DNA of 32,000 nucleotides, from assembly GCA_965208905.1 (NCBI GenBank), contig OZ242365.1, forward strand, positions 1,357,902 to 1,389,901, in the 5' to 3' direction. The translations under genes and the position numbers were made by a program. Positions 6,416 through 18,155 of the stretch are shown piece after piece; position 1 is the stretch's first letter; every line of letters starts with the position of its first letter. The stretch comes from Nitrosopumilaceae archaeon. GTDB taxonomy: Archaea; Thermoproteota; Nitrososphaeria; Nitrososphaerales; Nitrosopumilaceae. Below the pieces are notes generated by a model. It worked only from the letters and a program-made list of their open reading frames with translations, was not told the origin of the DNA and did not search any database.

Positions 6416-7180
6416 TCAATAATGATTCTTTATGTGTTTACCGCAGTAGTGGGATCCAGCTATGGGTTTCTCTTTGCACACTATGAGTCGCCTGTGTTGG
6501 CAGTCTTCGGATTTAGGTAAAGACTTTGTAGCTATATCTTTAACGTAACGCGCCTCTACATGATCTGGTTCTATCCTTAATGCTGCATCACAACACTCTA
6601 TGGCCTCGGCGTATCGGCCCAGACGATCCATGGAAATGCCTTTGAGGTAGTATGCTTCCGCATTATTCAAGTCCATACCTAGTGCCTCATCAAAACATTT
6701 TATGGCCTCATCATATCTCTCTAAATTATTCATCGAGTCACCTTTGAATATGCGCGCTTGTACATTATTCGAGTCTATCTCTAGTGCCTTGTCATAACAC
6801 TCTATGGCCTCCTCATAGCGTCCCAAATTATAGATGGCATCGCCCTTGAAGACATGCATGTTCGTGTCATCTGGGTCTATCTGTAATGCTGCATCATAAC
6901 ACAACATGGCATCTTTGTACTGTTCTACGCGATACATGATATCGCCCTTTAACCTGTAAGCTTGTGCATTATTCGAGTCCATCTCTAGTGCTTTGTCACA
7001 ATACTCTATGGCCTTTGAATATTGCTTTAGATGATACAGAGCATCACCCTTGAACATGTAGGCCTCGCTATCGTTTGGGTCTGCCTTTATGGCTTCACTA
7101 TAACATTTTATTGCTTCATTGTAGTCTCCCACACTATGAAATTGATTCCCTTTAATTGTGAATTTATATTCCATGCTCAC
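6416..7180 (-). CDS. tetratricopeptide (TPR) repeat protein with a Cys/His-rich tail
   Basis: About six consecutive 34-aa repeats (xYxxAIECYDKALEIDxNNxxAxxxKGxxLxxLxR). The C-terminus is CQHRRLIVCKEKPIAGSHYCGKH. Confidence 0.85.
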   Translation of the reverse strand: MSMEYKFTIKGNQFHSVGDYNEAIKCYSEAIKADPNDSEAYMFKGDALYHLKQYSKAIEYCDKALEMDSNNAQAYRLKGDIMYRVEQYKDAMLCYDAALQIDPDDTNMHVFKGDAIYNLGRYEEAIECYDKALEIDSNNVQARIFKGDSMNNLERYDEAIKCFDEALGMDLNNAEAYYLKGISMDRLGRYAEAIECCDAALRIEPDHVEARYVKDIATKSLPKSEDCQHRRLIVCKEKPIAGSHYCGKHIKNHY

Positions 7181-7830: not shown

Positions 7831-7866
7831 TCTACCTTTATAACCAATTGTGTGTTACACTTAAAA

Positions 7867-9570
7867 ATGAAAGTAAGTTTAATTATGCTCTTGCTGGCAG
7901 CGGTTGTTGCCACAGGAGCTACGATGACTAGCGCATACGCCCAACAGAACGGAGAGTCGATGGAAGCAATGGAGTCGATGGAAGCAATGGAAGCCCCAAT
8001 GCCCCCATCACCGTTTGCTCCCGGACAGTCAGTCTACTTCCCTCACGCTATGATCGGTCAGATAACCTCTAATCTTCCGCTGCCACCCTTCGACATGGCC
8101 AACGGCAACGCAGTCTTTGGGGTAATAATCCCAAACTTGGGTACTTGGATTCACCAAGAGGTATCCCCACACTTTGCGGACCCGTCGCTGTCGTTCAGAT
8201 ATGTTACGCTGATTCTTAATGCCGGCTACGACGCGACGGCGCCTTATCACGAGACGGCCGTCGGCGTATACTCACGTATTGACAACCGCCCGGCAAGTGA
8301 ATCTGCCGACAGCTACAACATCAACGTTGCATCCATCTATTCGGGATACCGGATGGGGATGGCGTTCGACCCAGACCGTGAACCGCAATGGCGGGCTATG
8401 ATGACTAACAATGGCTTGGACCCTGACGATGACACCGGATTGGACCTAGACTGCTCCCAGACGCACCAACTAGACTCGCCCATCGCCATAGGTAACTTGG
8501 CGAGCAAGTGTGTACTGGAGGCGCGGTGGTCTGATGGTTTCAACCACTTTGGGGATGAAACACCAGGACAACCATTCCGGGACACCACAGGCTATTCACC
8601 CGTCAACTCGGCCAACGAGCTGGTTGATCCGTCCAGGTGGCAACCTCTGATAAAACAACTCAGAGAGGGCACTTGGGTATCTCAACAGTTCACCACGCCA
8701 CAGTGGGCCGTGACCGAGCCATACTCGGACATCGATCCGAGAGAGTTCAGAGCACCACCCCCGTTCGCCAGTGACCACGCCTTTATGGACGACTACAAGG
8801 CACAGGCTGACGAGGTACTGGCTGCAGTAGCAGGCCTGACGGACGAACAGAAGATGCTGGTGGAATACTTCGACAACAAGGCACGTGAGACACTGTTCTT
8901 CCCGGCTGTAGAGGCGCTCCCAAACACAATGGACTTTTGGCAACTGGACTTTATGTTGCACATAGCCCAGTTTGATGCAGGAATTGTTGCTTGGCAAGAG
9001 AAGGCCAGATACGATGCCGTGCGCCCTGTTACCGCAATAAACTATCTGTATAGTGATGAGATCGTTCAGACCTATGGAATAGGCGGAGACGGTCCGAGAT
9101 CCATCGCAGGCAGCGAGTGGTACAGCTACGCTAACACTGGAGATCATCCAGAGTACCCATCCGCTACTGCATGCTTCTGCGCGGCGCAAGCTCAAGCTTG
9201 GAGGAATTATCTAGGTGGAGATGAAATCCCAGACGTTACCCTACCCAACGGGGAGGTTGTCGACGGATTCGTCGGAATATTGCCCGCAGGATCGTCCATA
9301 CACGAACCAGGAGTGACCCCTGCCAATGACGTAGTAGTAACCTATGACACTTGGACAGAATATGAGCAAGATTGCGCGGAAAGTAGGATATGGGCTGGTC
9401 TGCACTTTAGAGCGGCAGTAGAAGAGTCGCTCAATACGTGTAGCGATATAGGCAATGCGGCTTGGGACTACTTCTCAACACTGCTGGACGGGACAGCCCC
9501 GCTCAGACAGCCTGCTGAGAAACAAGACCAGGATCCGTTGCTGAACAGACCACACTTCACCGGACGATAA
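7867..9570 (+). CDS. secreted PAP2-superfamily / vanadium-haloperoxidase-like protein
   Basis: Signal peptide MKVSLIMLLLAAVVATGATMTSAYAQ. PAP2/VHPO motifs are KARYDAVRP (KX6RP), HPEYPSAT (a degenerate PSGH) and SRIWAGLHFRAAVE (SRX5HX3-like). ATG 7867 is preferred over GTG 7852. Confidence 0.7.
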   Translation: MKVSLIMLLLAAVVATGATMTSAYAQQNGESMEAMESMEAMEAPMPPSPFAPGQSVYFPHAMIGQITSNLPLPPFDMANGNAVFGVIIPNLGTWIHQEVSPHFADPSLSFRYVTLILNAGYDATAPYHETAVGVYSRIDNRPASESADSYNINVASIYSGYRMGMAFDPDREPQWRAMMTNNGLDPDDDTGLDLDCSQTHQLDSPIAIGNLASKCVLEARWSDGFNHFGDETPGQPFRDTTGYSPVNSANELVDPSRWQPLIKQLREGTWVSQQFTTPQWAVTEPYSDIDPREFRAPPPFASDHAFMDDYKAQADEVLAAVAGLTDEQKMLVEYFDNKARETLFFPAVEALPNTMDFWQLDFMLHIAQFDAGIVAWQEKARYDAVRPVTAINYLYSDEIVQTYGIGGDGPRSIAGSEWYSYANTGDHPEYPSATACFCAAQAQAWRNYLGGDEIPDVTLPNGEVVDGFVGILPAGSSIHEPGVTPANDVVVTYDTWTEYEQDCAESRIWAGLHFRAAVEESLNTCSDIGNAAWDYFSTLLDGTAPLRQPAEKQDQDPLLNRPHFTGR

Positions 9571-9658: not shown

Positions 9659-10060
9659 TTGAACCTCCATCCGGTTCGGGCTGGCGAATTCGTGCTGAGT
9701 ATGAGTGTGGCACGCGTTCATGCTGCCCCAGCCGAATATGGGTGGGGGATGTCCACTGAATTTGAGGCTGAGCTTCTTGATCGTGTAATCGAATTGATAA
9801 ACTCAAGACCGTACCACCCACAAATCAACTGCAAATTGGAGAGGTTCCACCGTAGTGTAGAAGAGGAGATGGAGCATTGGGATACTCTGTCCGAATACGT
9901 GACATCCTACAACGAGCGCAGACTTAGCGTCTCACTGGACATCAACAATCACCAGACATCGTTGAAGGTATTTTCAAACAAAAGATCTCTCGAAACAATA
10001 AAGCCGCCCCAACTGAATGGCGGAGGACGTAAACAATGGGGCGCAATGATTTCAATATAA
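9659..10060 (+). pseudogene. rve (IS481-like) integrase, C-terminal fragment
   Basis: SRPYHPQINCKLERFHRSVEEE...YVTSYNERRLSVSLD matches the HPQTNGKxERFHR...YNxxRxHxSL tail of DDE rve integrases. The upstream catalytic D residues are missing. Confidence 0.6.
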
Positions 10061-10064
10061 TACA

Positions 10065-10142
10065 GGAAATATTTTGGTAACACAAAACAGATGTAAGATT
10101 TAGCGCATCAACCACGACCAATATTTTGCAAATATGGACCGG
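10065..10142. repeat. 78-nt direct repeat, copy 2 (right border of the GC-rich cassette)
   Basis: Partner of 7381-7458. It starts 5 nt after the rve fragment stop and contains the last 14 codons and the stop of the 118-aa minus-strand ORF. Confidence 0.9.
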
Positions 10143-10456
10143 TCTCCTTGTTGTTTTATGACCACAGTACTGTCTTTGGATTTGAGATGTGCTTGGATAG
10201 TTTCAAGAATTGTACCCTCATCTTTTACCTTTGAGTTTTGCTTATGTAGATGAGTCACCAATTTTTTAATGAAATCCTCCTTAACACGTATAGTAAAAAA
10301 CCACCAACCCATAGCAAACTCTGCATCATCATCGAATCTATATGATACAGTATCGTGTACTATCATGCTTTGTAGGTGATCAAATATTTCTCTTAATATG
10401 AGTGCATCTGAATCTAGATTCCTTGTTGCTACACTGTATAACGGAATCCATGACAT
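10100..10456 (-). CDS. hypothetical protein
   Basis: 118-aa ORF with ATG start. No recognisable motif. Its 3' end lies inside repeat copy 2. Confidence 0.45.
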   Translation of the reverse strand: MSWIPLYSVATRNLDSDALILREIFDHLQSMIVHDTVSYRFDDDAEFAMGWWFFTIRVKEDFIKKLVTHLHKQNSKVKDEGTILETIQAHLKSKDSTVVIKQQGDRSIFAKYWSWLMR

Positions 10457-10502
10457 ACAACGCTATGCTTTCCTTTTATGTATAAAAGCACCTACTGTGC
10501 AT

Positions 10503-10552
10503 GCTTCTGGTAAGTTAACGTGAGATAGATCATCTTGGAAAGTGAGTGAGAT
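10503..10552. repeat. 50-nt inverted repeat, arm A (left border of the AT-rich island)
   Basis: gcttctggtaagttaacgtgagatagatcatcttggaaagtgagtgagat equals the reverse complement of 16894-16943 at 46 of 50 positions, including a 27-nt perfect run. Confidence 0.9.
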
Positions 10553-10695
10553 ACTTCGAATCTGTCAAAAAGGGTACATGAAACGGGACGGTTAAGAACT
10601 AAGTACCTCAACACACCTGTTAAGTGGTGGTACCTGAGGGGTTCTGGGATATATTAGGTACATAGAGTGTAGTGTAACAGAAGATCATGAAATCA

Positions 10696-11181
10696 CTAGC
10701 CAGACAACTTATAGTTGGTGTTTTCCTTTAACCATTGTCGGATAGTAGAATGAAGACCCCTCAACTCTGGGTCCCAAAGATACCTTACTGTTTCCTTATG
10801 TGCGCCTAACTCATCCAATACCATTCCAAAATACGACATCACATGCTGTTTTGTGAGTACACTATCATAGTATAAAGAGGTGACTGTAGTTAGATGATTG
10901 AGGTATTTTACACGTATGAACTTTAAGTTGTCATCTGTCTCAAATGTTTCTTGGTGGGATATCATAGAACACGCTGTGTACAAGTCCTTATCATTATACA
11001 GCTTCTCCCACAATTTTAGTATGAGATGTGCTGAATCAATCCAGACTCGTTGGTTCAACATATCTTTTTGTTGTTGAACCTGATGTCGGTTTGAGCGCCA
11101 TATCGCAAATGCAACCACCGCACTACCGCAGAATGTAAGTGCCGCAATGATTACGGAGATTGCCAATCCGAGATCAAACAT
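10696..11181 (-). CDS. hypothetical protein with an N-terminal transmembrane anchor
   Basis: 161-aa ORF. One N-terminal TM helix (LAISVIIAALTFCGSAVVAFAIW) is followed by a helical soluble part. No family was recognised. Confidence 0.55.
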   Translation of the reverse strand: MFDLGLAISVIIAALTFCGSAVVAFAIWRSNRHQVQQQKDMLNQRVWIDSAHLILKLWEKLYNDKDLYTACSMISHQETFETDDNLKFIRVKYLNHLTTVTSLYYDSVLTKQHVMSYFGMVLDELGAHKETVRYLWDPELRGLHSTIRQWLKENTNYKLSG

Positions 11182-11565
11182 CTTTGATCAAATCGGTGCC
11201 TAACCATATAAGCATGATGCAGAATGTTTTTTACCCCTAATCGCCATATTATAGTGTGGAACACTTGGAACCCATTATACTTGATTTCTACCTTCATAGA
11301 CAGCACGTAGATTTATCTGAACCCAAACCAGGAGGCAGGCCGGAAAAAGCCATCATGGCAAAACGTACAAAACATATCTACAAGCCTGTTGTTGCCATAC
11401 CTAGTGTTCGCACATAGGTTCTGTAACATCTTGTTTTATCCGGAAATCATGTCGCGCTATATTCTGGTCGTCAGTCATGAATATCATCCTCCATCCATGT
11501 AGGGTTTTGACTTCTTGTTTCAACAGTTGCCTTCTTTTTTTGAAAGAAATTAGTTGATATGTACA

Positions 11566-11580
11566 TAAAAAATAAAAAAG
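11566..11580 (-). terminator. oligo-T tract after the transposase stop
   Basis: The minus strand reads cttttttatttttta immediately after the TAA at 11581-11583. Confidence 0.3.
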
Positions 11581-12840
11581 TTAGGATGTTGACTTTGCAG
11601 CTGCTTGAATCATGGTAAGCCACTTGTTGTCACCTTCAACGGTGATACCTGCAGCCTCGGCGGGGGTTATCTGGTTTGGGAGTCCAAGGTGTGGGCGTAC
11701 AAAGTTGTGATACAATCGCAATCCAGAGATTATGCTAGAGTCATCCTTCTTCAAACCACGGCACACTTTCTCACGGTGTCGTAGTGTTGCCCCGTTGAAG
11801 GATTCCATTTGGTTGTTATGATGTATGCCATCAAAGGCAACATCATGTATATGCTCGGTCTCTTTGTGCAGAAAGTTCTTTGCTTTATACTGTTGTTTCC
11901 AAGCATGGTGAAAGTTGGCTGCCTTGTCACTAATTAATGTGGTTGGAACTTTACCCGTTACCTTCTTGGCCTGTTTAAACATCGGTGCTACGTCGTCATT
12001 GCCTTTGTGTTCGGCTACCATCTTGGCTATCCAAAACCTAGTCTCTGAATCAAGCATTGCAAATAGATATTTGCGGTTACCCTTGATTTTCAGGTATAAT
12101 TCATCTGTACGCCACTGTTCACCGACTTGTGGTTTAATCTTGTCAACAAAGGTCTCCATAAGTTCACCATACTGTTTACCCCAATTTTGTATGGTAACAT
12201 GAGTAGTCTTAAGTCCAGTCATTTCAAGGCTGCGGGCAACCTTCCTACTAGATAAGCCGCTAAACAGTAAATCTACAGCCTGTGTAATCTGTTCAGGTGT
12301 GGCTCTCTTGCGAGTGAACCCGACATTATGAGTGAACCGCTTAAGGCAGTCTATACACTTGAACTGCTGAACTGGACCTTTCTTGAACTTTCGTATACCA
12401 CATTTCACTACATTGGTTGACTCACAAAATTTACACTTGGTAAGGTCAACCTGCTTGATAATGATTTTAGGTACTTCCTGTTGTACCGCTTTTCTTATTC
12501 GGCGGCTTATCTCGACTGCATGAATATGCTTGCATATTACACCACGATACATATGATCCGGGCATGAACAAATCCAGCCATGCTCGGTGGATAATACCTC
12601 GTATACTTTATCGGATGATTGGGAACGTACCGTGTATGTCAGGTCGTCTATTCTCGTGATTTGGTTAGATTTACTGACTATTTGAGCGCCCCGTGTTATG
12701 CGGTCATTGGTGGTCTGTCCAGTCACATTGCCAACTGATATATTGTATAATGGTGTAATATGCTCAGAGTGCAATTCGCTCGTCATTGGGGTTGCTGCCC
12801 CTCTGGCTTTTGTTTTCATCATCGCATTTGTTATTGTCAT
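11581..12840 (-). CDS. DDE transposase, IS6-like (IS240-type) with N-terminal SWIM and zinc-ribbon fingers
   Basis: 419-aa ORF. SWIM finger is CSCPDHMYRGVICKHIHA and Zn ribbon is CKFCES...CIDC. Candidate DDE triad residues sit in WRTDELYLKIKG, LISDKAANF and NNQMESFNG. The tail is YHNFVRPHLGLPNQITPAEAAGI. Element ends were not identified. Confidence 0.8.
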   Translation of the reverse strand: MTITNAMMKTKARGAATPMTSELHSEHITPLYNISVGNVTGQTTNDRITRGAQIVSKSNQITRIDDLTYTVRSQSSDKVYEVLSTEHGWICSCPDHMYRGVICKHIHAVEISRRIRKAVQQEVPKIIIKQVDLTKCKFCESTNVVKCGIRKFKKGPVQQFKCIDCLKRFTHNVGFTRKRATPEQITQAVDLLFSGLSSRKVARSLEMTGLKTTHVTIQNWGKQYGELMETFVDKIKPQVGEQWRTDELYLKIKGNRKYLFAMLDSETRFWIAKMVAEHKGNDDVAPMFKQAKKVTGKVPTTLISDKAANFHHAWKQQYKAKNFLHKETEHIHDVAFDGIHHNNQMESFNGATLRHREKVCRGLKKDDSSIISGLRLYHNFVRPHLGLPNQITPAEAAGITVEGDNKWLTMIQAAAKSTS

Positions 12841-12915
12841 TAACTACCCTATGGTATAACGATAATATATAGTTATCCCATAGAAGGGTTAAAATAACTG
12901 ACATGTGGGTTAAGT

Positions 12916-13146
12916 GTGTTGGGAATTACTAAAAAAACAATCAAGGGTCTGGAATACATCTATTTTGCCTATTATGACGAGACATCAAAATCTAAACAAT
13001 ACAAATCGTGTGGGTCTGCTACCAATAAGGAATCTATGATCAAAGCTATATCACTTGAGCGCGAGTATCTGAAGCGACGTAAGAATAAACTAAACGAGGA
13101 AATTACACAGATACAGGAGAAAATAGATGGACTTGCAAAGTTATAA
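12916..13146 (+). CDS. small hypothetical protein: Arm/AP2-like N-terminal hairpin plus coiled coil
   Basis: 76-aa ORF with GTG start. KKTIKGLEYIYFAYYDETSKSKQYKSCGSATNKES resembles the Arm-type DNA-binding domain at the N-terminus of tyrosine integrases, and the C-terminal half is heptad-like. Its stop codon abuts the first 19-nt repeat. Confidence 0.35.
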   Translation: MLGITKKTIKGLEYIYFAYYDETSKSKQYKSCGSATNKESMIKAISLEREYLKRRKNKLNEEITQIQEKIDGLAKL

Positions 13147-13259
13147 TACGAGGCCTACGGCCAAATACGAGGCCTACGGCCAAATACGAGGCCTACGGCC
13201 AAATACGAGGCCTACGGCCAAATACGAGGCCTACGGCCAAATACGAGGCCTACGGCCAA
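13146..13259. repeat. perfect tandem repeat, 6 x 19 nt (atacgaggcctacggccaa)
   Basis: Six head-to-tail identical units were counted directly (13146, 13165, 13184, 13203, 13222, 13241). Each unit holds AGGCCT and a GGCC-tac-GGCC mini-palindrome. Confidence 0.97.
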
Positions 13260-13330
13260 ATTATACAAGCGGCGCCATACTATACAATACATACAACGCC
13301 TTATCAATTCATCGGAGGCTGTATATGTGA

Positions 13331-14779
13331 ATGTCTGGCATCAAGAACCGGACAATATTCACAGGCGACAACCTAGAGATATTACGTGGCTTTCCAGATG
13401 AATTTGTTGATTTAATATATCTAGACCCGCCATTTAACTCAAAACATAACTATGCTGCCCCCATAGGTTCTAAGGCGGCTGGGGCTGCCTTCAAGGATAC
13501 GTGGACTTTACAAGATGTGGATGTATCATGGTGGGGGGAGATTGCCGAGACAAACACTGCCCTGTATAAGGCACTAGAGGCAGCCAAACATACAGCAGGC
13601 AAGAGTGCCATGTCCTATCTAATCTACATGGCAATACGCATACTAGAGATGTATCGTATACTAAAGAGTACAGGTTCTATATACTTGCATTGCGACCCAA
13701 CCATGTCTCATTATTTGAAGATGGTGTTGGATTCGATTTTTGGAGTAGTGAATTTTAAGAACGAGATTGTATGGAAACGATCAAAGGGACATCCACTATC
13801 CATTAAAAAATTTGAAGCAGTAGCAGACTATATCTTAGTTTATCAAAAATCAGGTAACAGTGTTTTCTACCCAGTAAAATTACCAATGGATGAACAAACA
13901 ATAAAAAGAGATTATAGATATAAAGATGAACATGGGCGTTACAGTACATGTTCATTAACAGGTGGCAAGGCTGGCGGTGAATCTGCGTACTTACCATTTA
14001 ACGGTGCATTACCATCTTCAGGACGTGGATGGGCGCCACCTACTAGGCAAAAGATACCACAATGGGCAGCAAAAATATTACCTTCAGATTATGAAAAGAT
14101 GAATCAACTTGAAAAATGCCACGCTTTAGATGCTATTGGAATGATAGTATGGTCTGCTAATAACGTGCCTAGATACAAACACTATCTAAAAGACGTTCCA
14201 TACAAACTTGCTAATAGTGTATGGTATGACATAAAATTACTAACCTCCCATTCCAAAGAAAAACTCGGCTACCCCACCCAAAAACCCATAGCCTTGTTAG
14301 AACGTATAATACAAGCCTCTACAAACGAGGGAGATATTGTACTAGATCCGTTTTGTGGATGTGCGACCGCCTGTTCAGCAGCTGAACGGCTAAACCGAGA
14401 GTGGATTGGTATAGACATATCACCAAAGGCGGTTGAGTTGATGAACGCCAGAATGGTCAGCGAGGCAGGGATTGAAAAGTGGACAAAGGGCGCAGGAATG
14501 GTAATTCAAAGGACGGACATACCAATACGCAAAGGCAATAGATCAAAGAACATAAAACATCAACTATTCGGTATGCAGGAAGGCAGATGTAATCTATGCA
14601 GACATGAAATTGAATTTCGACATATGGAAGTCGACCATGTAATACCAAGGGCCAAGGGTGGACCTGATGATGATGGCAACCTCCAACTATTATGCGGTCA
14701 TTGCAATCGTGTTAAAGGTAAGGGGACAATGGCAGAAGCAAAGGTGAGACTGATCAAGCTGGGAATAGTAGCCCGTTAG
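13331..14779 (+). CDS. beta-class N6A/N4C DNA methyltransferase fused to a C-terminal HNH endonuclease domain
   Basis: Motif IV IYLDPPFN lies near the N-terminus. GYPTQKPIALLERII and motif I VLDPFCGCATA...IGIDISP come late, giving the beta order. The C-terminus CNLCRHEIEFRHMEVDHVIPRAKGGPDDDGNLQLLCGHCNRVKG is a canonical CxxC...DH...N...CxxC HNH domain. Confidence 0.85.
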   Translation: MSGIKNRTIFTGDNLEILRGFPDEFVDLIYLDPPFNSKHNYAAPIGSKAAGAAFKDTWTLQDVDVSWWGEIAETNTALYKALEAAKHTAGKSAMSYLIYMAIRILEMYRILKSTGSIYLHCDPTMSHYLKMVLDSIFGVVNFKNEIVWKRSKGHPLSIKKFEAVADYILVYQKSGNSVFYPVKLPMDEQTIKRDYRYKDEHGRYSTCSLTGGKAGGESAYLPFNGALPSSGRGWAPPTRQKIPQWAAKILPSDYEKMNQLEKCHALDAIGMIVWSANNVPRYKHYLKDVPYKLANSVWYDIKLLTSHSKEKLGYPTQKPIALLERIIQASTNEGDIVLDPFCGCATACSAAERLNREWIGIDISPKAVELMNARMVSEAGIEKWTKGAGMVIQRTDIPIRKGNRSKNIKHQLFGMQEGRCNLCRHEIEFRHMEVDHVIPRAKGGPDDDGNLQLLCGHCNRVKGKGTMAEAKVRLIKLGIVAR

Positions 14780-15080
14780 GTCATCGATTTTACACCATCA
14801 CACAGATCACTTTACAAAACCACCATCACACAAATTTGACAGCATATATCACTACACACGTTCTTGACAGTTCCCAAAACGAATTAGGGAATCTATACAA
14901 GGTGCATCTTGGTGATTTGATGTGTAGTGATGTATTGGTGATCTGAACAAGCATGTAAAGGTGACTTCTTACAGAATTTTGACTACTTACTGAATATAAT
15001 TAGTGTGGATGGTTGCGTGTAACTCCCCGACCTATATTCTGACGTAGTGCATGTCCTAAATGGCCTACCCATTTTTTCAT

Positions 15081-15482
15081 TTACCGTATATCTACGGTAG
15101 TTGTAGAATCTGGATTTGAAGAGAAAAGCCAGCCACGGGTTTGAGCTACTACTCTGAGATTCTTAGATATTCTCTTAATTTGACTTTTTGTAGAATTCCC
15201 AAACTCAATGAATGCATGTTCCTCGTATGGTATATGATCATCCACAACATCCAGATTCATGCGTGTACATTCGTTCACGGTCACAGCCATAACCCCGCTT
15301 GATTCTTTGTGTAATGTAGATGTATAATGTTGCCATGCTTTTTTAGCTGTTATTTGATCTCCATCGTAAACTGATAGACGGCACGGATCTCTTGATGAAG
15401 GACGAAATGCTCTAGATCCAGCACGACCTTCTCTAACGAAATTAGGATGAATCTGCCGGTATAGTTGGGTCTCACCATTCAT
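15081..15482 (-). CDS. hypothetical 133-aa protein, downstream member of a two-gene operon (candidate toxin/effector)
   Basis: ATG overlaps the upstream stop as ATGA. Motifs in order are LYRQIHP, RAFRPSSRD, RLSVYDG and PYEEHAFIEF. This aromatic-Arg ... Ser ... acidic pattern loosely recalls R-S-E ADP-ribosyltransferases. The family is unassigned. Confidence 0.6.
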   Translation of the reverse strand: MNGETQLYRQIHPNFVREGRAGSRAFRPSSRDPCRLSVYDGDQITAKKAWQHYTSTLHKESSGVMAVTVNECTRMNLDVVDDHIPYEEHAFIEFGNSTKSQIKRISKNLRVVAQTRGWLFSSNPDSTTTVDIR

Positions 15483-16606
15483 TTCAACATCTCTTTCATG
15501 GAGCGTATTTGGTTAGCCACCCATTCCCAACTATCCTGCTTGTTAAGATCTAATACCGTCTCATCACTGGAATTAGTACTAACATCATACCAACTCCATT
15601 CGCCACTATGCTTTACAAGATCTACCTCTAGGCTAATTTCCCGTTTACCTATACTCCATTCTAAATCAAGATCACCCTTGGGAGTGGGGTATATGTGAGG
15701 AAGCACAACATTGTTGGGATAATATTGCTTGAAGATGTCAGATAGCCAATCCAAGCCATCATGACTAGGAGCAACACCTTCACCATTTAACCAACCAGTT
15801 TTCATGGTACGCAGCTCATCTAACTGTACCAATACATCCAGTTTATCCAGTAAATGGATGTGAGTTATTGATTCAATAGAGATACGTCCATCTCGACTGT
15901 GCTGAACAGTACCCTGTATCTGTACTCTTGCATTGTCCTTATATCTGTCGAATGCTTTCATAATGATGTCATAGTAAGGGTCCGGCAGATGGCCTGTAAC
16001 TAACGGACCATAGACCTGTTGTAGACTAAATGTCATGTTTTTTTGATCTATCTTATGCACGGAGCCACGTAGAACTACCTCACTCGCACGCCTAATTGTG
16101 GATGTAAGAGATAGTACCTTATCGCGTATTTTTTTGGTTAGCCTAGCCGGAGTTTGATGCGTGGAGGCAGTCAACTCTAATGTCTCATCATCACGAAGAT
16201 TATGTCCTATATGCTTAAGGTGTTCTAACATGTCATACGATGGAACCTCGTCTGGTGGTAGTTGTTCATCCTGTGCCAGATGCTTAATAGTCTCTACTAT
16301 ATACTCTTTCGCACTCTCAAAATATTTTTGGTGTAGTATCTGCCCATCCAATGTCTGTTGTGTTGTGGTGAGTTTGAATACTGGTACGGTGCTTCCACTT
16401 TCAATACTAACTAATTCCAAATCAACTTTACTAAAGTCAGGTGAAGAACGTCTACGATTTGGATTATCTTTTAAATACTGCCATCGCGCTACTTCTATCA
16501 CCATCTCTTGCAGGGCATGCAAGTTGGGAAGAACGTCTTTCGGTATCCCCCCGTTCTTAAATCGCGCTCCATCCAACCGAGGTCGTAAAAAATCTACGCT
16601 TGGCAT
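15479..16606 (-). CDS. hypothetical 375-aa protein, upstream member of the two-gene operon
   Basis: Long ORF with ATG start and no nuclease or NTPase motif seen by eye. The C-terminal roughly 100 aa (GWLNGEGVAP...LPHIYPTPKGDLDLEWSIGKREISLEVDL) look like an independent beta-rich domain. Confidence 0.6.
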   Translation of the reverse strand: MPSVDFLRPRLDGARFKNGGIPKDVLPNLHALQEMVIEVARWQYLKDNPNRRRSSPDFSKVDLELVSIESGSTVPVFKLTTTQQTLDGQILHQKYFESAKEYIVETIKHLAQDEQLPPDEVPSYDMLEHLKHIGHNLRDDETLELTASTHQTPARLTKKIRDKVLSLTSTIRRASEVVLRGSVHKIDQKNMTFSLQQVYGPLVTGHLPDPYYDIIMKAFDRYKDNARVQIQGTVQHSRDGRISIESITHIHLLDKLDVLVQLDELRTMKTGWLNGEGVAPSHDGLDWLSDIFKQYYPNNVVLPHIYPTPKGDLDLEWSIGKREISLEVDLVKHSGEWSWYDVSTNSSDETVLDLNKQDSWEWVANQIRSMKEMLK

Positions 16607-16893
16607 AAGATCACCAAAACAGGACAGACTTGGTGCGTACTACACAAAAACTTAAACTCGGCTTTCATCTACCCCTCAACACTATATCTACTATAATAAT
16701 CCATACCCGCTTAATCCAATTCAGATTTACCCTTCAATCCTGATGCTGAAAATACAAGAAGAGAACAAAAGATGTGACAGGCCTTGCAGGAAGAGTTCTG
16801 CTACAAAGCAGGAGATTATGTATGTAATAGTTGAAGTTAATTTTTCAAATTTGTATTTTTTAAACATTGTATTTCTCAGATCACTATACTATC

Positions 16894-16943
16894 ATCTCAC
16901 CCACTTTCCAACATATTCTATCTCACGTTAACTTACCAGAAGC
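16894..16943. repeat. 50-nt inverted repeat, arm B (right border of the AT-rich island)
   Basis: Reverse complement of 10503-10552 (46 of 50). It ends 1-2 nt before the first hairpin of the IS110 leader. Confidence 0.9.
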
Positions 16944-16944
16944 T

Positions 16945-17127
16945 ATGTGTCGTTGTTATATCGGCGACACATGTACTCTTCCTGTTGGACCTGAGAGTCG
17001 ACAGGAACTGGCCCCTCCGAGGGCGCTTACCAGAATGGCTCAAGGTACGTGAAAAGCTTCAGCCCCTCCGAGGGCGGATGGAAGTTTACCATGGTCAGGT
17101 CCGACTATCCACTAAAAAGGAGGTGAA
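16945..17127 (+). ncRNA. candidate IS110 bridge-RNA-like structured leader
   Basis: 183 nt between IR arm B and the transposase ATG. Pairings seen: 8-bp hairpin 16945-16952/16965-16972; 7-bp hairpin 16979-16985/17001-17007; long-range 8-nt pairing 16987-16994/17095-17102. The 15-nt gcccctccgagggcg occurs twice (17011, 17062). No expression or covariance evidence. Confidence 0.25.
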
Positions 17128-18155
17128 ATGAAAAAAAGAATTGCATTACATCGGAATTGACGTACACATGAGAAGATGTGTGGCCACCACCAAGGGAAGA
17201 TCCAAAAAGGTGTTAGACCAGTTTGAGTTCAACAACGACCTGCACGGGATACGTGCGTTCGCCAGCAGAATGCTGCGCCGCGAGTACACGCCGGCGGTAG
17301 CCGTCTTTGAGTCCACCGGTAACTATTGGAAGGTACTCCACAACGAGCTAGAGGAGACAGACATCAAGCCGGTCCTGGTCAACCCGTACGACCTCAAGAT
17401 CATCACTCAGGCAAAGTTTAAGGACGACCGGGTTGACTCTGAGAGGTTGTCCGACCTAGCCAGGGGAGACCTGTATAGACCATCCTACGTTCCCACCCAG
17501 AAAGAGATGGACCTGCGCGAGCTTACCCGCACCCGCCTGGATTTGCGGTACGACGCCACCGAACACAAGAACCACGTGCACGCTATCCTGACCAAATATC
17601 CGCTCAAGAGGCCCCCGAATATCTACACGGCCAAGGGTATGGAATGGCTGCAGACCGCACCCGTCCGGAACTACGACCGAATGGCGCTTGACTCCCACCT
17701 GTATATCCTTAATGCTACCGAGAGACGCATATCCCTGCTGGAAAAGGAGATCTGCAGGATAGCCATCTTTGACCCGCGGGCCCGTCTTATGATGACCATG
17801 CCCGGGGTGGGACCGGTCACCGCGGTGACCGTCCTGGCGGAGATAGGGGACACAGGCCGGTTCGCCAGGCCTGAGCAGCTGACCGCCTACGCGGGTCTGG
17901 TGCCGTCCCACAGGAACAGCGCAGACACAGTCCGGACCGGCGGCATCACCAAAGTCCGGATCCCGCTGGCTCAGGAACGCGGCCGTAGAGGCGGCGTTCG
18001 TGGCTGTCCGGCACGACCCATACCGCAAGGGTAGATACGAGCGACTGGCCGCCAGGAGAGGCCCGCAGAAGGCTCGGGTCGCCGCGGCTCGGGAGATGCT
18101 AGAGGACATGTGGTACATGCTGACCAGGAACGAACCATATAACCATCCCAACTAA
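17128..18155 (+). pseudogene. IS110-family (DEDD) transposase/recombinase, interrupted by two single-A frameshifts
   Basis: YIGIDVH N-terminal motif and the MPGVGPVTAVTVLAEIGDTGRF...LTAYAGLVPSHRNS IS116/IS110/IS902 domain. After 17955 the protein continues in the +1 frame (KSGSRWLRNAAVEAAFVAVRHDPY...NHPN*, stop at 18153-18155). ATG 17128 has a perfect aaggaggtga SD but is out of frame unless the A7 run is read as A6. Confidence 0.8.

Follow-up and report, generated by a model that had tools for sequence, protein, structure and literature searches.

Six perfect 19-nt direct repeats that separate two genes of a Nitrosopumilaceae archaeon may, as we tentatively propose, form a slippage-prone minisatellite leader acting in cis on the expression of the downstream gene. 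The array lies in a stretch of 32,000 nt of contig OZ242365.1 (hereafter the window), between a small open reading frame (ORF) for a 75-aa protein and a gene encoding a DNA methyltransferase with a C-terminal HNH nuclease (methylase-HNH). We hold this interpretation with less than even confidence. All positions refer to the window unless a locus is named, and the main comparison is made with Cenarchaeum sp. SB0669_bin_11 (locus L001; hereafter the relative). The features that bear on the argument are as follows.

12845..12897, both directions: divergent promoter/operator block, of which ~51 nt are 100% identical to the relative
12919..13146, plus strand: gene of the 75-aa protein (76 aa if counted from the GTG at 12916), with an AlphaFold2 model and 38 relatives
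13127..13330, plus strand: upstream ORF of 67 codons at six copies; its peptide is not conserved
13146..13259, plus strand: six perfect 19-nt direct repeats of ATACGAGGCCTACGGCCAA (Tandem Repeats Finder, exact search, RNA fold)
13260..13330, plus strand: 71-nt spacer, with its first 36 nt 72% conserved and holding a degenerate relic unit, and its last 35 nt 91% conserved
13331..14779, plus strand: DNA methyltransferase (beta-class, DPPF motif) with C-terminal HNH nuclease, 482 aa (Pfam, PADLOC)

An exact search of the 32-kb window identified six head-to-tail copies of the 19-nt unit, and Tandem Repeats Finder delimited the array to 13145-13261 (period 19, 6.2 copies, 100% matches, indels 0). 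The first unit starts on the last base of the TAA stop codon of the small ORF (13144-13146), and 71 nt separate the end of the array from the methylase ATG at 13331. The initial annotation of this DNA, which had reported six mismatch-free units, the overlap with the stop codon and the 71-nt gap, was accurate on all of these points. Each unit contains AGGCCT and GGCC-TAC-GGCC, giving 12 GGCC sites per 114 nt of array, and the array is bordered by a degenerate relic unit and by ATAC micro-repeats. No further copy of the unit occurs in the 32 kb even with three mismatches allowed (0.01 matches expected from shuffles), its 12-mers do not recur elsewhere in the surrounding mobile element with up to one mismatch, and a pattern covering two units gave no match in genome, viral and metagenome contig collections. 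The array had also been described as non-coding, and this holds: the minus strand is closed by a TAG, and in the sole ORF that crosses the array on the plus strand, eight of the nine codons changed after the array, in the spacer, are non-synonymous with respect to the relative. Since this ORF is not conserved as a protein, we rejected a coding repeat.

Comparing the window to related genomes, we found the combination of small ORF, array and methylase gene again in the relative, a pairing that the initial annotation had proposed to look for elsewhere. There, the unit is identical and follows the small gene at the same place, but the copy number differs, with at least seven copies around an assembly gap compared to six in the window. 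Three short-read contigs end within the array. Between the two genomes, no indel has altered the location of the array or its 71-nt distance from the ATG. Comparing window and relative, the small gene shows 0.33 synonymous differences per site and the methylase N-terminus 0.28, and the first 36 nt 3' of the array are 72% identical. Across this divergence, the unit shows 0/19 changes, which has a probability of about 0.002 or less when the array is treated as one homogenised 19-nt locus. Perfect identity had been read as either recent expansion or constraint; an identical unit at 0.28-0.33 synonymous differences per site supports constraint or homogenisation. In a third lineage (L005), with flanks 97% identical and the same protein, both visible units carry the substitution G5A (variant ATACAAGG...), which indicates that the units are homogenised together and that position 5 is free to vary.

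No oligo-T tract was found between the small gene and the methylase gene, which makes read-through transcription likely, and the array would be transcribed together with the small gene. Replication slippage would alter its length. In the simpler version of the proposed mechanism, array length would set the distance from the upstream promoter/operator to the methylase start. A second route would involve the upstream ORF, which begins within the 3' end of the small gene, continues through the array and terminates, in the methylase frame, at a TGA adjoining the methylase ATG. The conserved last 35 nt of the spacer hold GGAGG (13314-13318), the ATG-TGA (13325-13330) that abuts the methylase ATG, and ATGTGAATG. 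In simulations of copy number, the upstream ORF stopped exactly at the methylase ATG for n = 3, 6 and 9, and 46 or 71 nt inside the methylase ORF for other numbers, with the same outcome in the relative. At multiples of three, the TGA-ATG junction would favour re-initiation at the methylase; at other copy numbers, the upstream ORF would overrun into the methylase and occlude its start. The 181 nt from the small-gene stop to the TGA hold no stop triplet in any forward frame, which is true of 0.15% of such windows in the sequence; for the 68-nt spacer alone, the stop-free state has a shuffle P of 0.004 and an empirical frequency of 5%. That the array is an archaeal contingency locus, which would switch methylase-HNH ON and OFF by translational gating according to copy number modulo three, appears unlikely to us.

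Several observations weigh against a cis-acting leader. An array is missing from most loci of small-protein relatives and from those of the closest methylase-HNH homologues. Counting the repeat a single time leaves the open-frame statistics modest, length and frame models alone do not account for the conservation of the unit sequence, and Shine-Dalgarno use and termination-reinitiation in Thaumarchaeota are assumptions of the model. In addition, related sponge symbionts harbour comparable perfect arrays in non-coding DNA that seems to have no function. A perfect 13-nt array counts four copies in one sample (L010 9037-9090) and two in another (L011 9037-9064) between identical flanks, and a perfect 16-nt array of at least 15.6 copies lies in GC-rich non-coding DNA (L008 11573-11821). 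The former shows that perfect arrays in these symbionts do vary in copy number between samples, which also speaks for the proposed leader. These genomes thus generate minisatellites by slippage as a general trait, which keeps alive the explanation of a minisatellite without function: having arisen by local duplication between genes, it would owe its perfect copies to slippage or unequal exchange and its persistence to being harmless. The relic unit and the ATAC micro-repeats beside the array would fit such an origin, as would the L005 variant, which shows that the unit can change, and the fact that most relatives are without any array. However, this explanation has to account for a unit that is identical across about 30% neutral divergence, for a position and an ATG distance kept without indels, and for a hairpin potential that is unusual among the arrays examined. 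Taken together, we consider it a serious rival, though somewhat less probable than the leader. No perfect arrays were found in 98 kb of viral loci with distant methylases or in the soil loci, and none of 19 viral loci showed an array upstream of a methylase gene.

A second array, behind a distant member of the small-protein family (33-34% identity), bears on the argument from both sides. In L010 (5258-5460) and L011, a perfect 24-nt array of GGACCACGCGGGGATCGGCCAGAG (at least 3.3 copies and an assembly gap) begins 41 nt past the stop of the small gene and is followed by an N6_N4 methylase with an SPPY motif. A GTG located 12 nt upstream of this array is the sole start codon in the methylase frame before motif I, and the array is therefore probably translated, as a (PRGDRPEG)n N-terminal repeat. 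Being probably coding and without hairpin potential, it may represent a different phenomenon from the array of the window. It supports the theme of repeat tracts 5' of methylase genes, not a common operator.

Alternatively, the array could be an operator at whose repeated sites the 75-aa protein binds, controlling methylase-HNH in the manner of the controller proteins of restriction-modification systems. The gene of this protein probably starts at the TTG at 12919, because the relative has GTA at the position of the GTG at 12916 and its annotated protein starts at the TTG. Window and relative are 83% identical, and the ratio of non-synonymous to synonymous substitutions (dN/dS) of 0.19, at a dS of 0.43, indicates that the gene is real. 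A HMMER scan of 1.84 billion representatives (E < 1e-3) yielded 38 relatives, mostly of 70-100 aa, which share the pattern K.(I/V)KG..Y(L/V)YF.YYD....K...YCG....ES..KA..LE.EYL followed by a heptad-like tail; none was found on plasmids, phages or viral contigs. The nearest named relative comes from a Cenarchaeum sp. metagenome-assembled genome.

The initial annotation had suggested a structure prediction for this protein and had ascribed to it an N-terminus resembling Arm-type or AP2-like DNA-binding hairpins. The AlphaFold2 model (predicted local distance difference test score, pLDDT, 94.7) consists of antiparallel strands at residues 3-9, 12-21 and 26-34, followed by a long C-terminal helix (38-75), and a trimmed model from a 16-sequence alignment agrees with it. 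The strand-strand-strand-helix order is as expected for Arm-type and AP2 domains, but membership was not borne out by Pfam or Foldseek. The protein has no match in Pfam, NCBIfam or PADLOC, and 3 of 37 relatives reach Arm-DNA-bind_5 (PF17293) at a sub-threshold E of about 0.011. Foldseek searches of the models (PDB with the full and the trimmed version; BFVD) returned nothing better than E 0.03 and nothing significant; the best PDB matches (E 0.18-0.29) concern 29 residues of the CarD N-terminus, and the top 50 include no AP2 or integrase arm domain, only one uncharacterised phage 'Integrase' entry (E 0.4, query TM-score, TMq, 0.44). A profile search of PDB sequences with the family retrieved only coiled coils, and no helix-turn-helix family was found in the protein, its predicted fold being a sheet plus helix.

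The small protein founds an undescribed family that is linked to DNA methylases. In two relatives, the family sequence is fused to the N-terminus of an N6_N4 methylase (P0136 with DPPF, P0137 with SPPY), and others carry winged helix-turn-helix (wHTH) domains or HARE-HTH together with MazE/AbrB domains. Free-standing members directly precede a type III Mod-Res pair (L012) or N6_N4 methylases (L010/L011, L013/L014), and one lies beside ParB_N/Dnd genes (L030). In three lineages (window and L001; L013/L014; L031), an IS6-type transposase is encoded divergently upstream of the family member. The link to methylases is frequent but not universal, as one soil clade of the family adjoins proteasome genes without a methylase. 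Module relatives also occur beside phosphorothioation-type genes, namely cysteine desulfurase, DUF4007 and PAPS reductase in L006 (7791-13452) and ParB_N and DndE in L030 (800-5656), so that the small-protein family accompanies DNA-modification systems of several kinds.

The region upstream of the small gene offers a different candidate for its binding site. A block of ~51 nt is completely conserved between window and relative, whereas its flanks diverge, and it contains a palindrome formed by GGTATAAC (12853-12860), an 11-nt spacer and GTTATCCC (12872-12879). In the usual archaeal arrangement, messages are leaderless and the TATA box precedes the transcription start by about 26 nt. Based on this general geometry, we take GATAATATATA in the palindrome spacer, 26 nt from the transposase ATG, to be the TATA box of the transposase gene, and TTAAAATAA (12889-12897), 26 nt ahead of the TTG at 12919, to be that of the small gene. 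Sites of the GGTATAAC/GTTAT[AC]CC motif are present in the window (12845-12897), L013 (1585-1640), L015 (701-795) and L017 (3925). Of 24 occurrences of GG[GT]ATAAC in 130 kb of fifteen loci, 19 lie no more than 210 nt upstream of a family member, which corresponds to an about 150-fold enrichment in four lineages whose proteins are 30-40% identical. Judged from sequence, the GGTATAAC palindrome is probably the operator of the family, overlapping the transposase TATA box in the window, and the small protein probably binds it and controls its own gene and the transposase rather than acting via the array.

Because the conserved upstream motif of the family is unrelated to the 19-nt unit, the small protein is probably not the reader of the array. 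If it binds the palindrome instead, the array has no candidate reader, which makes an operator array less probable. Conserved gene order, the conserved unit, the presence of family members fused to or directly before N6_N4 methylases, their co-occurrence with wHTH, HARE-HTH and MazE/AbrB domains, and the second array behind another family member in L010 would all be compatible with such an operator. Set against this, single copies of the unit are missing from the promoters of the element, the array of L010 is probably coding and the majority of family members are without arrays, so that we give the idea little credence.

A role at the RNA level is suggested by the self-complementarity of the unit, which may explain part of the constraint. 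Neighbouring units pair via CGAGGCCT/ACG into a hairpin of ~10 bp, and folding of four units gave a z-score of -4.1, with a range of -3.3 to -4.8 over the folds made. The variant unit of the third lineage keeps this potential (z -4.8); three other perfect arrays of related genomes gave -0.7, +1.5 and -0.85. The tandem intercistronic hairpins could therefore stabilise, process or insulate the methylase-HNH message regardless of any change in copy number, consistent with the lack of a terminator between the small gene and the methylase gene. Palindromic pairing would also account for constraint on about half of the unit. However, the loop positions are conserved as well. As Rfam contains no RNA family matching the array at E <= 1 and the other methylase-adjacent array, in L010, is without structure, we see just a slight chance that RNA structure is the whole explanation.

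The methylase-HNH gene itself combines PF01555 (2.1e-44) and PF01844 (4.8e-12) in one polypeptide and matches PADLOC MTase_II (2.7e-60). It has more than 8000 homologues at E <= 1e-20, and nearly all of the best 120 show the fusion of PF01555 and HNH. In the closest homologues (L006, L008/L009), the order is transposase, small ORF and methylase-HNH. The small ORF of L006 and L008 encodes 56 aa without homology to the 75-aa family (hhalign probability 0.05), and the loci with this unrelated ORF show a different palindrome; an impression that the 56-aa ORF was AbrB-like was not confirmed by Pfam. The methylase of the window is 97% identical to that of the relative (P0010) over residues 1-150 and 93% over residues 300-481, whereas the central target-recognition region (~150-300; 13781-14230) shows about 30% identity and a 27-aa indel. 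Synonymous divergence is 0.28 in the N-terminal and 0.60 in the C-terminal part. The swapped target-recognition domain and the uneven divergence point to mosaic recombination, and the two enzymes probably differ in specificity.

This replacement bears on the proposal of the initial annotation that the array is a cluster of methylation or recognition sites (GGCC, AGGCCT or other) for methylase-HNH, coupling expression to methylation state. Twelve GGCC sites in 114 nt beside a methylase gene are in keeping with it, but the unit remained unchanged although the target-recognition domain of the relative was replaced. Moreover, the DPPF motif presumably marks an adenine enzyme, as known for the family, and the window shows no avoidance of GGCC (observed/expected 0.85). 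We regard the proposal as very improbable; a GGCC restriction system signalled by avoidance was rejected on the same ratio.

The array is part of a mobile element, which we delimited by its ends and gene content. The further features of this element are as follows.

10503..10552, no strand: left 50-nt terminal inverted repeat, with a homologous end in L001 (7912-7961)
16894..16943, no strand: right 50-nt terminal inverted repeat, which pairs with the left end at 92% complementarity
11581..12840, minus strand: IS6-type DDE transposase with an N-terminal zinc-finger region (Pfam DDE_Tnp_IS240, PF13610, 2.3e-14)
15081..16606, minus strand: cargo genes PDC-M32B (133 aa) and PDC-M32A (375 aa) (PADLOC 5.3e-47 and 2.3e-111)

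Between the inverted repeats, the ~6.4-kb element encodes a 161-aa ORF (minus strand), the 419-aa DDE transposase (minus), the small ORF (plus), the array, methylase-HNH (plus) and the PDC-M32 pair (minus). The transposase scores 54 bits against PF13610 (cut-off 27) and 99 bits against NCBIfam IS6 (2.5e-28; under the cut-off of 125); it is divergent from the small gene, and the same neighbour recurs in L001, L006, L008, L013 and L031. No target-site duplication, in the form of an 8-bp direct repeat, was seen flanking the inverted repeats. The PDC-M32B and PDC-M32A genes overlap, are without Pfam domains and constitute a candidate phage-defence system in an archaeal transposon. The element sits on a 2.2-Mb contig. 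Cenarchaeum, placed among the thaumarchaea (Nitrososphaerota), is known as a sponge symbiont. The host element is an IS6-type cargo transposon in a Cenarchaeum-like thaumarchaeon. The comparison of the array with plasmid iterons or parC-type partition sites, raised in the initial annotation because of the 19-nt period, agrees with the direct tandem order and with the 17-22 bp range of iterons but is ruled out by this gene content and hardly credible: no Rep, ParA/ParM or ParR/ParB genes were found in the ORFs of 10100-18034 (Pfam, NCBIfam), the ends are those of a transposon on a 2.2-Mb contig, and no plasmid or phage relatives were found.

Additional observations concern the surroundings of the element. 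Just beyond the right inverted repeat lies an IS110-family transposase gene (17141-18034), whose 3' end is possibly truncated or frameshifted, preceded by two exact copies of GCCCCTCCGAGGGCG that are 51 nt apart (17011-17076). Just beyond the left end, a short ORF with a weak rve_3 integrase-core match (9659-10060) is probably a transposase remnant. Further to the left, a 572-aa secreted-looking protein (7852-9570) combines DUF6851 with a vanadium-chloroperoxidase-like helical domain; at its N-terminus, an 18-nt tandem duplication (7954-7991) encodes ESMEAM repeats. A 102-nt tandem duplication (6661-6850; 1.9 copies, 76% identity) lies within the minus-strand ORF 6416-7180.

If copy number controls methylase-HNH, the array would be a candidate for repeat-driven phase variation of DNA modification in Archaea, a parallel to the phasevarions of bacterial pathogens in a host-associated lineage, but built differently. 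Translational gating, if true, would make it a phasevarion-like epigenetic switch of a single-chain restriction-modification gene in a sponge-symbiotic thaumarchaeon, whose repeat length and mechanism have no described counterpart in bacterial phase variation. Even if it is only a minisatellite, the array would still be of use for typing strains and as a recognised point at which short-read assemblies of these symbionts break. Regardless of its role, the analysis adds an undescribed family of ~75-aa proteins, built from a sheet and a coiled coil, that has a recognisable candidate operator motif and is associated in Thaumarchaeota with DNA methylases and mobile defence modules, and an IS6-type transposon that moves a methylase-nuclease and the PDC-M32 defence candidate jointly.

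Comparing the locus to known systems, plasmid iterons and parC sites likewise consist of ~20-nt direct tandem repeats beside a small gene with a coiled-coil tail, but here there is no initiator, partition ATPase or replicon, and the array lies inside a transposon. Arm-type integrase and AP2 domains share the beta-beta-beta-alpha order of the small protein, and the sub-threshold matches of three relatives to Arm-DNA-bind_5 point in the same direction; unlike in those cases, no significant sequence or structure match and no integrase is present. As in IS6 (IS26-like) cargo transposons, a DDE_Tnp_IS240 transposase is accompanied by long terminal inverted repeats that bracket the cargo. The present element differs from these by the missing 8-bp target duplication, by the N-terminal zinc-finger extension of its transposase, and by a single transposase and 50-nt ends around 6.4 kb in place of two flanking IS copies.

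Control of restriction-modification is exerted by controller (C) proteins and by M.SsoII-type N-terminal regulatory domains. In these systems, as here, a small gene stands directly before the modification or restriction gene, a palindrome lies in its own promoter (here a candidate operator), and homologous domains are fused to methylase N-termini. Whereas C proteins are of the Xre-type helix-turn-helix class, the protein described here is predicted to have three strands and a long helix, and C-box systems, without a counterpart of the tandem array, differ also in the operator motif, which is GGTATAAC here.

Phase-variable DNA methyltransferase genes of host-adapted bacteria are known as phasevarions (PMC2667262, PMC3311624), and promoter-tract switches are exemplified by nadA/NadR (PMC2791445). 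Phasevarions share with the present locus a perfect tract 5' of a methylase gene, a period that is not a multiple of three, a host-associated organism and a methylase with a recombining central target-recognition domain; in both, copy number decides the reading frame of translation across the tract. The bacterial units measure 1-7 nt, whereas the unit reported here is 19 nt long and belongs to an archaeon, and its tract is located outside the methylase ORF, from where it would act via the upstream ORF or via spacing.

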